From an uncultured delta proteobacterium (GTDB taxonomy: Bacteria; Desulfobacterota; Binatia; UBA9968): a stretch of 64,000 nucleotides of DNA. The notes beneath the pieces were generated by a model. That model was given only the letters and a program-made list of their open reading frames with translations, searched no databases and was not told the origin of the DNA. Below, piece by piece: positions 12,811 through 34,434 of the stretch. Numbering within the stretch: position 1 is the first letter of the stretch; every line of letters starts with the position of its first letter. The stretch spans positions 220,094 to 284,093 of the forward strand of contig CAVUZH010000015.1 in the NCBI GenBank assembly GCA_963745835.1, in the 5' to 3' direction. The translations under genes were made by a program, and so were the position numbers.

Positions 12811-13000
12811 AAAATCTGAAATTCGAAGTCCGAAATCCCCGTTCGAAAACTAAAATCAACAGTTATCCCAGGCTCTAGAAGTCCGTCAGTTCCAGAATGT
12901 TTGTATCGGTCGAATCGCAGGTTTGGATCGGAATCTGTGATCTCGGATTTAGATATTCGGGGGTTTGTTTCGGATTTCGATATTCGGATTTCGAATTTTT
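12811..13000. repeat. Empty element with heptamer-repeat inverted ends (AAATCCG/AAATTCG family)
   Basis: Left AAAATCTGAAATTCGAAGTCCGAAATCC; right TTTGTTTCGGATTTCGATATTCGGATTTCGAATTTT. Confidence 0.7.
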
Positions 13001-13044
13001 ACAGATTGCCTAGTGAACTTTCATTACTATCGAGGCCGCGCTGG

Positions 13045-14088
13045 CTATTTTTTGCCGATATCCCGCAACAGCTTTTCCCATTTTGCATTTTCTTTCTCGT
13101 ACTGCTCCACGGTCATACCGGCTTCGGCATAGTAGCGCTTGAACGGCGGTTTGTTGACTGCGCTGTCGAGACCGAATTTCCCCAGGATTTTCTGCCCTTC
13201 GGGACTTAACAGATAATCGGCAAACAAGAGCGCGCTATGGGGGTGCGGCGCGTTGGCAGGCACGGCCACTCCGCCGGCATTGGTCGGGACAAGATCCATC
13301 GCCACCCACTTGATCGGCGCGCCTTTCGAGATCGAGGTGCGCGAATGGCTGAGAAATACCGTCGGAGACAATCCGAGCTCGCCGGAGACAACCATATCAG
13401 CGATCGCCCGGCCGGAGACCCCGTGAAGAATAACATCTTGGCTCTTGAGCTTAGAAAGGAACTCCGCGCCTTTGGTCGCCAACATCGCGCCGATCACCCG
13501 GTTCCCTGTGTCAGAGGTGGCAAAACCGATTTTGCCTTTCAGCTCGGGGTTGAGCAGAGCGTCAAAATTCTTCGGCGCCGCCTTTTCCAAAACAACATTG
13601 GTGTTATAGGCAAGTCCGATATACGATTCGCGATCGGTCGCCCAATAAACCAAGCCTTTGTCCGCCTTTTCCTTTACTTCATCCGGGTATGAGCCCAGAT
13701 GCGGTGAGAAGTACGGTGTAAGCAGCTTGTACTCCTGCATGACTTTCAAAATGGGAAATGTCGTTTCGATGGTATCGACGAGATAACGTTTTGCCTGCGC
13801 TTCTTGCAGCACTCTCTGGATGATCGCATCGCTGTCGCCGCGATAAACGTCCACTTTGATTCCGGGATACTTCGCTTCGAAAGCCTTCGGCACCTCCTGA
13901 TTGGGTCCGCCGGTAAGTGACGTGTACCACATCATCCGGCCCTCTTTTTTTGCTCCGTCGAGAAGTACCTGTTCTCGGTCGGGCTTGTTGTAAGCGGCGA
14001 GCTCGGCAATTGACATGGGCTTTCCCGTCTGGGCCGAAACTGAGGGTAGCCAAATGAGCGCGGCAAAGAATAGAAGTAAGACTCTCAT
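13045..14088 (-). CDS. Extracellular solute-binding protein (iron/AfuA-like ABC SBP)
   Basis: Signal peptide; GAKKEG...WYTS; AYNTN; NAPHPHSALLFADYLLSPEGQ. Confidence 0.9.
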   Translation of the reverse strand: MRVLLLFFAALIWLPSVSAQTGKPMSIAELAAYNKPDREQVLLDGAKKEGRMMWYTSLTGGPNQEVPKAFEAKYPGIKVDVYRGDSDAIIQRVLQEAQAKRYLVDTIETTFPILKVMQEYKLLTPYFSPHLGSYPDEVKEKADKGLVYWATDRESYIGLAYNTNVVLEKAAPKNFDALLNPELKGKIGFATSDTGNRVIGAMLATKGAEFLSKLKSQDVILHGVSGRAIADMVVSGELGLSPTVFLSHSRTSISKGAPIKWVAMDLVPTNAGGVAVPANAPHPHSALLFADYLLSPEGQKILGKFGLDSAVNKPPFKRYYAEAGMTVEQYEKENAKWEKLLRDIGKK

Positions 14089-14228
14089 TTTCTCTCCCTG
14101 ATCACGGATTGGTCCTGCGATTAGATATCATCGATATGAAGTGAAGACCAATTGACTAAGGCGAATGGAAGTTCGCTCAGGGATTGTAATCTCTGGGGAA
14201 ACGTAGTGCCCGAGGCCGCCGCGAAAAC

Positions 14229-14681
14229 TTATGATCCCGCAGGCTCCATACCGTGCCGACGCATCAACTCCATCTCGGCATCCTGCGTGGGAGGAATGTC
14301 TCCGGACCACAGCGCCTGCAGTTCTTCAAAGTAAGCGTCCATCGCTGGCGCATGAATAACCAACAAACGGGCGGGTGTCGTGCCTGCATTGCCAAATGTG
14401 TGAGCCACTCCGCCGGGCACGAGCACGAATGTGTCACGCTGCCCAACTGTTGTAGTTTCGCCAACAAAGAACTCTATCTCACCGTCAAGAACGTAGAAAG
14501 CTTCTTCGCAGTTTGTGTGAACGTGAGGCGGCGGTTTTCTGCCGCCCGGTGGCAGCGTGCGCTCCATCAGTGAGAAAGCGCCGTCGGTACTCGCCCGCGT
14601 CGCCTTGAAAAACATTGCGCTGCCGCGCGCAGAAAGCAGCGTCCCCTGGCCCGCCTCGAGAATCGTAGCTGTGTCTCGCAT
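14229..14681 (-). CDS. Cupin domain protein
   Basis: PPPHVHTNCEEAFYVLDGE and VPGGVAHTFGN motifs; GAGGAG RBS. Confidence 0.9.
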   Translation of the reverse strand: MRDTATILEAGQGTLLSARGSAMFFKATRASTDGAFSLMERTLPPGGRKPPPHVHTNCEEAFYVLDGEIEFFVGETTTVGQRDTFVLVPGGVAHTFGNAGTTPARLLVIHAPAMDAYFEELQALWSGDIPPTQDAEMELMRRHGMEPAGS

Positions 14682-14773
14682 ACATTTTCTCCTCTCGAAG
14701 ACGAGTGTGATCCAATCAGAAACTGCGATTTGCGACCGAACGTTCAAGCTCAATGCTACAGCGGAATGAAGGT

Positions 14774-32652: not shown

Positions 32653-32749
32653 TCCAGACGATGAATGTTCGGCCAGGCAAGATGGCAATATTGTCGAGCT
32701 ATTTTTTCGAAGATTTCTGAATCGTGGCGAGCGGGAGCAAATACGAACA

Positions 32750-32798
32750 GTAACCGATTGATTACCTCGCCGTAGCGCTTAGGTTACTAATATCGTAC
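32750..32798. promoter_or_regulatory. Candidate upstream activator sites GTAA-N8-TTAC
   Basis: GTAACCGATTGATTAC (32750-32765) and degenerate GTTACTAATATCGTAC (32783-32798); same spacing at the paralogous promoter. Confidence 0.6.
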
Positions 32799-32861
32799 TT
32801 CTGTCTCCTGTGCGGAGAGTTAAACAACAGATCGGTTGGCCGAGATTTGCTTGGTAGACGG

Positions 32862-34218
32862 TTAGACGGTGATAGCTAGCGATTTAAGAAGCCTTAGGAA
32901 ATATTTCTCGTGCAGTCCAAGGAGCCGCGCCGCGGCGGCGCGATTGCCGCGGCAGCGCTCTAGAGCTACGAGAACCAATTCTTTCCGGTAATCTTCCATG
33001 GCGTCACGGTAGGATCGACCATCGATTGTCGGGCGCACTACTGACGCAACAACTCTCGATGGCAAGTCCTGTACCGTAACGCACGGGCCCCTGCCCAGAA
33101 CGATAGCCCTTTCGATCGCGTTGGCCAGCTCGCGGACGTTGCCGGGCCAGTCATACGCACAAAGCTGCTTCAGGGCATCGGCGACAATCTCGGTGAAGTT
33201 CTTTTTTGCCTCTCTTGCGTAATGTTCCATGAAGTGATGCGCCAAAACCGGGATGTCTTCCACTCTTTCTCTCAACGGCGGAAGCGTGATCGGGATGACG
33301 TTGATGCGATGATAGAGATCTTGGCGGAAGCGTCCCTCTTTGACCGCGGTCTCCAAATCGCGATTGGTCGCAGCGATGATTCTAACTTCGACGTGAATCG
33401 GCCTGACGCCGCCGACCCGGTCGAATTCGCGCTCTTGGAGAAATCTTAACAACTTGGTTTGGAGCTCCTGGGACATGTCTCCGATTTCGTCGAGGAAGAC
33501 CGTCCCGCCGTTTGCCAGCTCCATCTTGCCTTTTTTCTGTTGGTCGGCCCCTGTAAATGCTCCCTTCTCGTGCCCGAACAGCTCGCTTTCCAAGAGTTCC
33601 TTCGACAAGCCCACACAATTGATCGCCACAAACGGTTGGCTTTTTCTATCGCTCCAGTTGTGAATCGCGCGCGCAAAAATTTCCTTGCCGGTGCCACTTT
33701 CCCCCAGGAGCAACACTGTCGCTTTGCTGGCAGCAGCCTTGCGCGCGGTCTCAAGGGCTTCCGCCATTTTTTTGCTTTGTCCGACTGATAAGACGGTGGC
33801 GGCTATCGGTTTCTTCCGTGAGTAGCTCCAAGCCGCGTTTCAATCCCTCTCTTTCCAAGGCTTTGCGCACGACGATTTCAAAATGTTTGCCGTCGATAGG
33901 CTTGGTGATGAAGTCATAGGCTCCCTGTTTCATCGCGTCGACGGCATTTTCAATGGAACCGTGGGCGCTGATCACAACGACCGGAAACTTCGCTCCTTGC
34001 TTGGCCAACTCCCGAAGAACCTCAATTCCCCCCATTTTCGGCATCTGGAGATCCAGGAGCATCAGCTCCGGCTCGTGTTTTTTTATCTCGGCTAGAGCTT
34101 CAGGGCCGTCCGCGACCGCCGCAACCGCGCATCCCATAGCCTCCAGTCGCACGCGCAAGAGCCGCCGAGAGGCTCCATCATCGTCGACGATCAGCACCCG
34201 TGTGGCTGTGATTGTCAT
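32862..34218 (-). CDS. Sigma54-dependent response regulator (NtrC family: REC-AAA+-HTH); frameshift near 33780
   Basis: LIVDDD/LLDLQMP receiver; [39 protein letters not shown]-terminal HTH. Confidence 0.95.
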
Positions 34219-34271
34219 TTCTGGAAAATTACGCTTTCAGTGTGAAACAAATTATAGCGCTAAGTCCGCTT

Positions 34272-34434
34272 AAAAAATCCGAAATCCAAATATCGAAATC
34301 CGAAACAAAGCGCAGCCAAATAAATCCCAAACTCGGAAAATTGGAAACCCTGCCTGATCGGGCCGTTTTTGAAGATTGAAAGTTTGGAACATTTGAATTT
34401 GTTTCGGATTTCGAAATTCGTGCTTCGAATTTTT
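34272..34434. repeat. Empty (gene-less) copy of the heptamer inverted-end element
   Basis: Left AAATCCGAAATCCAAATATCGAAATCCGAAACAAA; right 34387-34432 matches 16536-16581 at 44 of 46 positions. Confidence 0.8.

Follow-up and report, generated by a model that had tools for sequence, protein, structure and literature searches.

We analysed a 64,000-nt stretch of DNA from an uncultured delta proteobacterium (positions 220,094 to 284,093 of contig CAVUZH010000015.1, assembly GCA_963745835.1; hereafter the window), in which three intergenic elements end in inverted arrays of 7-nt units and one of them encloses a gene of the TIGR02436 (S23p/PF05635) four-helix-bundle family. The three loci probably represent one family of palindromic, heptamer-armed cassettes of the intervening sequence (IVS) type that sit in operon spacers, with one copy loaded with the gene and two copies that are gene-less deletion derivatives. 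Inverted heptamer arms are linked to four-helix-bundle genes generally, and the cassette is polymorphic among relatives and spread across a phylum.

Results

One loaded and two gene-less elements in the window

All genes flanking the three elements are on the minus strand. The features are listed below in window coordinates; the family model mentioned there is a profile of ten aligned gene-less copies from the source genome (7.28 Mb in 25 contigs).

16532 to 16586, minus strand: 5′ arm (in the sense of transcription) of the loaded copy, AAATCCGAAGCACGAATTTCGAAATCCGAAACA, with the inner motif containing ATG (nhmmer, family model positions 7-61, 35.4 bits; inverted repeat)
15892 to 15927, minus strand: 3′ arm of the loaded copy, TGTTTCGGATTTCGAAATTCGGATTTCGATATT (inverted repeat; pairs with 16549-16584 in the minimum-energy fold of a 708-nt RNA)
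15899 to 16102, minus strand: complete gene-less hairpin unit 3′ of the gene (family model positions 5-159, 56.3 bits)
16066 to 16460, minus strand: four-helix-bundle gene (TIGR02436/PF05635, CGGATTT-associated subfamily; TIGR02436 match, translation, 2rld_A)
34267 to 34440, minus strand: gene-less copy, in sense with the flanking minus-strand genes (family model 134.7 bits; fold)
12807 to 13003, plus strand: degenerate gene-less copy between a NUDIX-like and a solute-binding-protein gene (family model 68.3 bits)
14774 to 15889, minus strand: downstream flanking gene, response-regulator receiver plus adenylate/guanylate cyclase domain (Pfam PF00072, 112.6 bits; PF00211, 69.3 bits)
16580 to 17009, minus strand: upstream flanking gene, receiver-type response regulator (motifs read by eye; list of open reading frames, ORFs; orthologues in relatives)

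A preliminary description of this DNA had claimed inverted ends at all three places, and an inverted-repeat search recovers them: 15892-15927 with 16549-16584 in the loaded copy (36 nt, 83% complementary), 34273-34309 with 34398-34434 in the 34-kb copy (37 nt, 84%) and 12809-12838 with 12972-13001 in the 12.8-kb copy (30 nt, 80%). The right ends of the loaded and 34-kb copies (16536-16581 and 34387-34432) are identical at 44 of 46 positions, reproducing the figure given there. A 14-mer core, TGTTTCGGATTTCG, has five exact occurrences in the window and one further match with two mismatches, against a chance expectation of 1.11 matches at two mismatches or fewer; none of 100 shuffles reached six. 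The arms are indeed inverted heptamer arrays of about 4-5 units, but the units are mostly TTTCGGA and TTTCGAA on the G/T-rich arm (hereafter CGGATTT-type) rather than the AAATCCG and AATTTCG originally read.

The arm AAATCCGAAGCACGAATTTCGAAATCCGAAACA begins within the TAA of the receiver gene and covers that stop (16580-16582), an overlap that had been noticed before, and the TIGR02436 gene follows about 100 nt further 3′. The arm TGTTTCGGATTTCGAAATTCGGATTTCGATATT comes after the gene, with 2 nt separating it from the ATG (15887-15889) of the receiver/cyclase gene. The lower G+C content described earlier for the enclosed gene is borne out for the element 15895-16581, at 0.418, whereas the flanking genes have 0.54-0.55 and the whole window 0.559. 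Scored with TIGR02436, the product of the gene reaches 66.9 bits over profile positions 8-108 of 109 (cut-off 24), or 66.6 bits in a genome-wide profile scan, and its nearest solved chain is PDB 2rld_A (E 2.2e-10), from an entry deposited with five chains. Rfam at gathering thresholds finds no family in the window, rRNA included.

The simple arm-gene-arm layout first proposed for 15895-16581 holds as far as the enclosed gene is concerned, but a degenerate third arm (about 16060-16102) overlaps the 3′ end of the four-helix-bundle ORF and, together with the right arm, makes up the complete gene-less unit at 15899-16102. Its order of parts (5′ arm, gene, degenerate second 5′ arm, loop, 3′ arm) makes the loaded copy a composite rather than one hairpin whose loop holds the gene.

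About 510 nt beyond the 34267-34440 copy, Tandem Repeats Finder (TRF) reports a further heptamer array, AATCGGAAATCGAAAATCCAGAATCTAAAATCG, with 4.7 copies at 34949-34981.

Inverted heptamer arms accompany four-helix-bundle genes across phyla

For each TIGR02436 locus we computed a flank score: the 260 nt upstream of the gene were aligned locally with the reverse-complemented 260 nt downstream, and the best alignment was taken. Displaced windows in the same loci served as controls. TIGR02436 is present in 29 of 41 genomes (40 relatives plus the source genome, including the unpublished G012 and G018), with 1-14 copies each, and the 11 genomes of family f3 gave no match. Among the relatives, 30 loci reached a median score of 17, compared to a median of 9 and a maximum of 12.5 in 103 controls; 22 loci lay above the control maximum, or 20 of 28 when the two loci of the unpublished genomes are left out. 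A wider set came from a related-locus search with an alignment of five sequences and spans Nitrospirota, Bacteroidota, several proteobacterial classes, Clostridia, Acidobacteriota, Planctomycetota, Chlorobi and others; named isolates among the hits include Geobacter sp. AOG1, Flavobacterium omnivorum and Adhaeretor mobilis. The set comprised 80 fetched loci, 76 of them testable (four were too near a contig end), and the median was 17.5, against 9.0 in 141 controls with a 95th percentile of 11.5 and a maximum of 17. Sixty-six of the 76 loci exceeded the 95th percentile of the controls and 40 exceeded their maximum.

In these 66 positive loci the best self-identity period is 7 in 58, 8 in six and another value in two, and mean self-identity is 0.70 at lag 7 compared to about 0.25 at other lags. 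On the 5′ side of the gene, the arm is rich in G at 49 loci and in C at four. Most loci (51) show a plain arm-gene-arm arrangement, and the remaining 15 have a self-hairpin in one or both flanks. By crude ORF calls, the gene is co-directional with both neighbours in 34 of 66 loci having both neighbours callable. None of 20 sampled four-helix-bundle loci lies in an rRNA gene, Rfam giving only one tRNA. An association of CGGATTT-type ends with four-helix-bundle genes elsewhere, which the preliminary description had raised, is found at the orthologous locus of G021 and G010 (the ends being read in G021) and at non-orthologous loci of G101 and G256.

Gene and ends appear to travel together

Exact matches to the 21-mer TGTTTCGGATTTCGAWATTCG are found in 26 of the 301 genomes sampled across the phylum, belonging to 18 of 201 genera, with up to 33 copies per genome; the reversed pattern, used as a control, matches none of the 301. 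In five genomes of the phylum with many copies of the 21-mer, 25 of 27 TIGR02436 loci were testable, of which 22 score above 11.5 and two have CGGATTT-type ends by the family model. These two, L185 in G101 and L189 in G256, belong to two other families of the phylum. Their proteins are 67% (G101) and 68% (G256) identical to the window copy, close to the 71% of the G021 protein, and only 21-35% identical to the other four-helix-bundle genes compared from those genomes and their relatives. Among the neighbours of L185 and L189 there are no orthologues, either of genes in the window or between the two loci. Across 57 loci, protein similarity and heptamer similarity are correlated (Mantel r 0.16; none of 2000 permutations reached this r), and at least six of seven heptamer positions are shared by 23% of the pairs with a normalised protein score of at least 0.6, compared to 0-5% of less similar pairs. 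The specific gene subfamily and the specific end type thus appear, from their sequences, to move as a unit. We dropped protein clade versus heptamer type in the relatives as evidence of such co-movement, since the GTTCAA clade proved to be one orthologous locus.

The origin of the gene-less copies is suggested by their inner parts. At L185, where the gene is intact, its ATG lies within ACAAATTCGAATG, directly after the left arm; this inner motif is kept in every gene-less copy, and the family model aligns to L185 over the left arm through about the first ten codons and then over the right arm. Because the start-codon motif is retained, the gene-less copies are internal-deletion derivatives of a loaded cassette that have lost most of the gene. 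The orthologous locus of G021, a member of another genus, has an intact gene with a complete hairpin on each side, and the two left arms of the loaded copy in the source genome are direct repeats. Recombination between these repeats would delete the gene and leave an ordinary gene-less hairpin.

At L185, two extra palindromes, GTCATTCCGGCGAAAGCCGGAATCC and GGATGCCGGATCAAGTCCGGCATGAC, lie between the stop codon and the right arm (1860-1935 of that locus) and may be nested repeats. Among viral contigs, a 22-mer core has no matches. A looser 20-mer matches 29 viral-classed contigs, four of which have a full gene-less hairpin and none a four-helix-bundle gene in the fetched DNA; the full-length gene-less CGGATTT copies on IMG/VR contigs classed as viral (L144/L163, L153, L162) score 65-76 bits.

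Gain, loss and replacement among relatives

At the spacer between the two response-regulator genes, where the loaded copy sits, the genomes differ as follows:

Source genome and G021 (other genus): loaded CGGATTT cassette
G010 (other genus): four-helix-bundle gene and arm matches beside the homologous gene
G005 and G006 (same genus): nothing but a CTTCGTG array, in about 110 nt
G011 and G022 (other genera): inverted GTGAGGC/GTAAGGC arrays
G029 (other genus): CACGAAG arrays
G019 (L008) and G020 (L010), other genera: unrelated 0.8-0.95-kb insert common to both

G006 has the 34273-34434 copy, with the entire region 97% identical. G004 and G005 lack it, their spacer measuring 38-44 nt compared to about 241-245 nt. 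The 12811-13000 copy is present in G004 and absent in G021, which has a 57-nt spacer without arrays. Insertion polymorphism among relatives, a prediction of the preliminary description, is therefore seen as presence and absence at all three window loci. In G006, the locus corresponding to 12811-13000 (L132) holds a CACGAAG hairpin between remnants of CGAAATT-type arms, so that one hairpin family appears to be nested in another or to have replaced its inside. There was no transposase beside any copy examined.

A family of gene-less hairpins in the source genome

The family model finds 19 loci and one extra arm in the source genome, with hairpins of 130-200 nt and matches of up to 138 bits. This is the genome-wide count for which the preliminary description had called, and only one of the 19 loci, that at 15.9 kb in the window, carries a TIGR02436 gene. 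The gene-less element is about 160-170 nt long, and its polarity is fixed. An A/C-rich arm is followed by the inner motif ACAAATTCAAATGATCAAAAT..GGAAAATTCCAAAC, an apex that varies and an inner part rich in G/T, after which comes the arm TGTTTCGGATTTCGATATTCGGATTTCGGATTTT. Many copies lie 12-54 nt upstream of a start codon.

Heptamer arrays extend well beyond this family. TRF reports 589 period-7 arrays, the second commonest period class in the genome, and 189 of these, of several unit types, have at least 2.7 copies. For 66 of the 189, an inverted partner exceeds the 99th percentile of a null from random regions, and these together form at least 45 hairpin loci of several sequence types, the majority with loops of 9-133 nt. 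Seeming "loops" of 1.05-1.18 kb were rejected, as they turned out to be adjacent spacers within tandem ABC_sub_bind paralogue clusters. Five TIGR02436 genes or fragments are present in the genome, each beside a different heptamer array (GGCAACA, CACGAAC, GTTCAAA, CGGATTT and AATGGAG); the inverted flanks of four of them score 14-21.5, and the fifth, a 50-codon fragment, scores 10.

The ABC_sub_bind clusters are tandem series of paralogues of about 330 aa (PF04392; seven of seven ORFs tested match) with a GATTTTG-type array in most spacers. They lie at C19:390000-403000 and C22:231000-248000, and also at C3 1353800-1429390 and C24 385351-391935, and no four-helix-bundle gene in this genome has arms of that type.

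The elements as RNA

The long RNA stem put forward in the preliminary description is supported by folding. The 708-nt minus-strand RNA of the loaded copy is predicted to fold at -205.6 kcal/mol (z -5.3), its outer arms pairing over roughly 55 bp, and the 34267-34440 copy is predicted to form a hairpin of -60.4 kcal/mol (z -5.6). Among the gene-less copies, the strand with the A/C-rich arm 5′ (the model sense) is the more stable one in 15 of 18, by a mean of -6.4 kcal/mol (Wilcoxon p 1e-4), and has more G-U pairs than the opposite strand. By a crude ORF table, about 17 copies sit between co-directional genes and 12-15 of these are in sense; two copies run antisense, and another two have convergent neighbours.

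At their base the stems are rich in A+U, and they terminate in 3-6 consecutive U. A terminator scan, which detects loops of 3-8 nt only, gave seven calls in the window compared to 5.5 expected in shuffles: one weak call falls within the 12807-13003 copy (12941-12962, eight pairs, three of them G-C) and none at the other two elements. Promoter and terminator scans of the window together found nothing above shuffles.

Of the sampled words, a fraction of 0.41-0.67 occurs in public DNA runs from soil, rhizosphere and winery metagenomes, and at most 0.09 in RNA runs. As the best cross-database hits of the related-locus search are Nitrospirales metagenome-assembled genomes, the soil and rhizosphere matches would point to an organism that is probably a soil-dwelling member of that group. 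One DNA contig of run X6 joins 15882 to 16596 and skips 713 nt, the intervening letters being unread, and another X6 contig covers 16197-16589; the loaded and skipped forms may perhaps both occur in that sample. The stretch 16174-16507 is uncovered by contigs of X2, X15 and X16, which proves nothing. A joint from 15931 to 16558 in an RNA contig was rejected as a sign of excision, as its shorter side is 24 nt and it probably comes from another copy.

Reading frame of the gene and its neighbours

The in-frame body of the four-helix-bundle gene runs over 16069-16422, with the stop at 16066-16068. Its N-terminal codons (KQYDLEDRTF) are in a different frame upstream of about 16422, and there is an in-frame TAG near 16422. 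In the neighbourhood, the receiver gene has a 1-nt frameshift near 16655 (seen by eye in the ORF list and sequence) and the GIY-YIG gene has another at 17199, the base being missing from contigs of runs X2, X6 and X16; some public-run contigs also add a T at 17069 and 17328. Given indels in neighbouring genes and one base absent from the contigs of other runs, the assembly probably carries indel errors, and the break in the four-helix-bundle frame may be one of them. Frameshifted genes here should therefore not be taken as pseudogenes without a read check.

The frameshifted small GIY-YIG ORFs (16996-17347) are bracketed by stretches of about 30-37 nt at 16989-17021 and 17323-17359. These brackets recur many times at 89-100% identity in genomes of the same order, including the TIGR02436-free family f3, and the unit looks like another small repeat-bracketed gene module.

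Discussion

How the cassette could work

We propose that the full form of the cassette carries a TIGR02436-family gene between arms made of inverted arrays of 7-nt units, and that it resides in the spacers of mostly co-directional genes and would be transcribed along with them. In the RNA, the arms would pair into a stem of 35 to about 55 bp. By analogy with the S23p-bearing IVSs of 23S rRNA, RNase III could cut this stem, and the insert would be either removed from the host transcript or tolerated in it. Recognition of the heptamer arrays would most naturally fall to the four-helix-bundle protein, a relative of the nucleic-acid-binding protein Avd.

Several of our observations pull the other way. 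The copy at 12807-13003, which the preliminary description counted as a third empty copy, does belong to the family and lacks a gene, but it is degenerate, and the model places it on the plus strand, antisense to both neighbours. On the neighbours' strand it folds at -46.5 kcal/mol (z -1.6), no better than shuffles, compared to -64.0 kcal/mol on the plus strand. As the copies share descent, the strand bias in 15 of 18 does not represent 15 independent events. Covariation in the consensus stem is also nearly absent: over 18 pairs, 307 of 322 cells are paired and only one pair has a two-sided change, so the copies could owe their pairing to descent from a master copy and not to selection. The public RNA-run contigs are uninformative on cleavage, and no target-site duplication is visible at the three polymorphic loci, where diverged empty spacers blur the boundaries. 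The four-helix-bundle gene is broken near 16422 in this assembly, and by analogy with Coxiella the protein may be dispensable. Finally, at least 45 gene-less heptamer hairpins stand against five four-helix-bundle genes in the genome, and the largest array family, GATTTTG, has no loaded copy there. Since hairpins so far outnumber genes, they may have a life of their own.

This last point leads to a different view, which we consider possible but rather unlikely: that the hairpins are primarily intergenic RNA elements of the host, or independently selfish ones, in either case comparable to repetitive extragenic palindromic (REP) sequences and bacterial interspersed mosaic elements (BIMEs), acting as mRNA stabilisers, attenuators or intercistronic processing sites, and that four-helix-bundle genes are later lodgers in their loops, as in rRNA helices. 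The surplus of hairpins over genes and the unloaded GATTTTG type are what it would predict. It also gains from the arrays in nearly every spacer of the tandem ABC_sub_bind clusters, from the many copies just upstream of start codons, from the nesting of one hairpin type in the remnant of another in G006, and from the orientation and G-U strand bias, which suggest a role of the hairpins at the RNA level. Against this, one particular protein subfamily goes with one particular end type at non-orthologous loci in three families of the phylum, the start-codon motif in the gene-less copies gives the direction from loaded to empty, and the patchy 21-mer, with its presence and absence among congeners, fits a spreading element better than a host signal. 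The elements could instead be miniature inverted-repeat transposable elements (MITEs), moved at the DNA level in trans by a transposase or recombinase (e.g., RAYT-like or of the IS200/IS605 type), with the arrays as binding sites and the gene as a passenger. Terminal inverted repeats, dispersed copies, internal-deletion derivatives, a patchy distribution and the full gene-less copies on four of the 29 viral-classed contigs all count in favour of this view. Yet neither a transposase beside a copy nor a target-site duplication was seen, and, in contrast to cargo, the passenger always belongs to one and the same protein family (66 of 76 loci from many phyla). The arms vary in sequence between lineages but keep their 7-nt period, which is hard to square with one sequence-specific enzyme, and we regard this explanation as highly improbable.

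That the similarity is a chance by-product of local slippage repeats in AT-rich spacers, without common origin, seems to us hardly credible. The genome is rich in period-7 arrays, and passages of PMC4679880 discuss a bacterial excess of heptanucleotide repeats. Slippage, though, would not explain copies that align over their full 130-200 nt, non-repetitive inner parts included, nor the near-identity (44 of 46) between the ends of two copies, nor an irregular third unit, GATATTC, that is letter-exact in 26 genomes when the reversed control matches none. We therefore retain an IVS-type cassette with one loaded and two deleted copies as the likely account of the three loci.

It is tempting to speculate further, although we hold it decidedly unlikely, that the protein is the pentameric specificity factor of a new class of mobile element. 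With about one subunit per 7-nt unit, it would read the arrays of its own transcript or DNA and promote copying of the cassette into transcribed spacers and rRNA helices, possibly through an RNA intermediate and a host reverse transcriptase, as Avd does in diversity-generating retroelements. If so, the gene-less hairpins would be non-autonomous copies mobilised in trans, and much of the intergenic heptamer-repeat excess of bacteria would be accounted for.

Relation to known systems

The closest known relatives are the IVSs of 23S rRNA, in which an ORF of the same family sits within a long inverted-repeat stem; the Coxiella stem likewise has heptamers. According to the sections of PMC4990558 drawn on here, the IVS of Coxiella burnetii ends in a stem of 28 bp, and immediately 5′ of its S23p ORF lie three GACAGAT heptamers in tandem, or two in some strains; RNase III excises this IVS, with a cut at the first heptamer repeat, and the ORF is decaying. 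The same sections cite an older idea that the IVS was once mobile, with its ORF serving mobility, mention by citation ORF-bearing IVSs in Leptospira, Xanthomonas and Brucella, and describe the Xanthomonas S23p structure as a homopentamer. ORF-bearing rRNA IVSs have been known since the 1990s (Ralph and McClelland 1993, as cited in part of PMC3936711). Unlike these IVSs, the window element lies between two response-regulator genes and not in a helix of 23S or 16S rRNA, a large gene-less family accompanies the loaded copy, and excision would be expected here by analogy.

With MITEs our elements share short dispersed gene-less copies, terminal inverted repeats, internal deletion from a longer gene-carrying form and polymorphism; unlike MITEs, the full-length form has no recognisable transposase, the 7-nt-unit ends differ between lineages and no target-site duplication was found. 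The REP sequences and BIMEs of enterobacteria resemble them as intergenic palindromes of transcribed operons that can form RNA hairpins, but REP units are about 35 nt long, do not consist of heptamer arrays and have RAYT transposases, instead of a four-helix-bundle gene, as their partners. The short tandemly repeated repetitive (STRR) sequences of cyanobacteria are comparable intergenic heptamer repeats. TAACTGA heptamer arrays in Beggiatoaceae, cyanobacteria and Bacteroidetes are likewise intergenic, patchy and often just upstream of start codons (passages of PMC4679880). Those passages describe direct arrays, with one inverted case among 170 sets, and make no tie to four-helix-bundle genes; here, the arrays are inverted pairs around, or derived from, a gene. 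In the full text of open-access PMC and bioRxiv, which leaves subscription journals outside its scope, we found no description of an arm-gene-arm heptamer layout outside rRNA.

Avd of the diversity-generating retroelements, a nucleic-acid-binding protein of the same four-helix-bundle fold family, offers another comparison, and a paper on these retroelements reportedly names PF05635. Unlike in the Avd setting, our genes stand alone within hairpins, and the ORFs beside the window gene are response regulators; neither a reverse transcriptase nor a pair of template and variable repeats was noticed next to these genes, although no search aimed at them was made. There are also links to CRISPR: the parts of PMC3936711 used here report 18 23S_rRNA_IVP genes inside cas loci, and a figure legend in PMC10910872 places the family among CRISPR-array-linked proteins. 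We suggest that the repeat arms, together with a habit of inserting into operons, may explain this reported linkage.

What the cassette means for the family

In the rRNA setting, the function and origin of IVSs and the role of S23p are still unexplained. Our results suggest that, outside rRNA, a gene between inverted heptamer arrays is the normal habitat of a widespread protein family, that the unit moves between loci and lineages and leaves abundant gene-less hairpins in operon spacers, and that different heptamer types replace each other at the same spacer. This would join three loose ends, namely the IVSs of rRNA, the "hypothetical" TIGR02436 family and the intergenic heptamer repeats, and it provides concrete substrates for experiments in the form of one protein subfamily with a defined 21-nt core.

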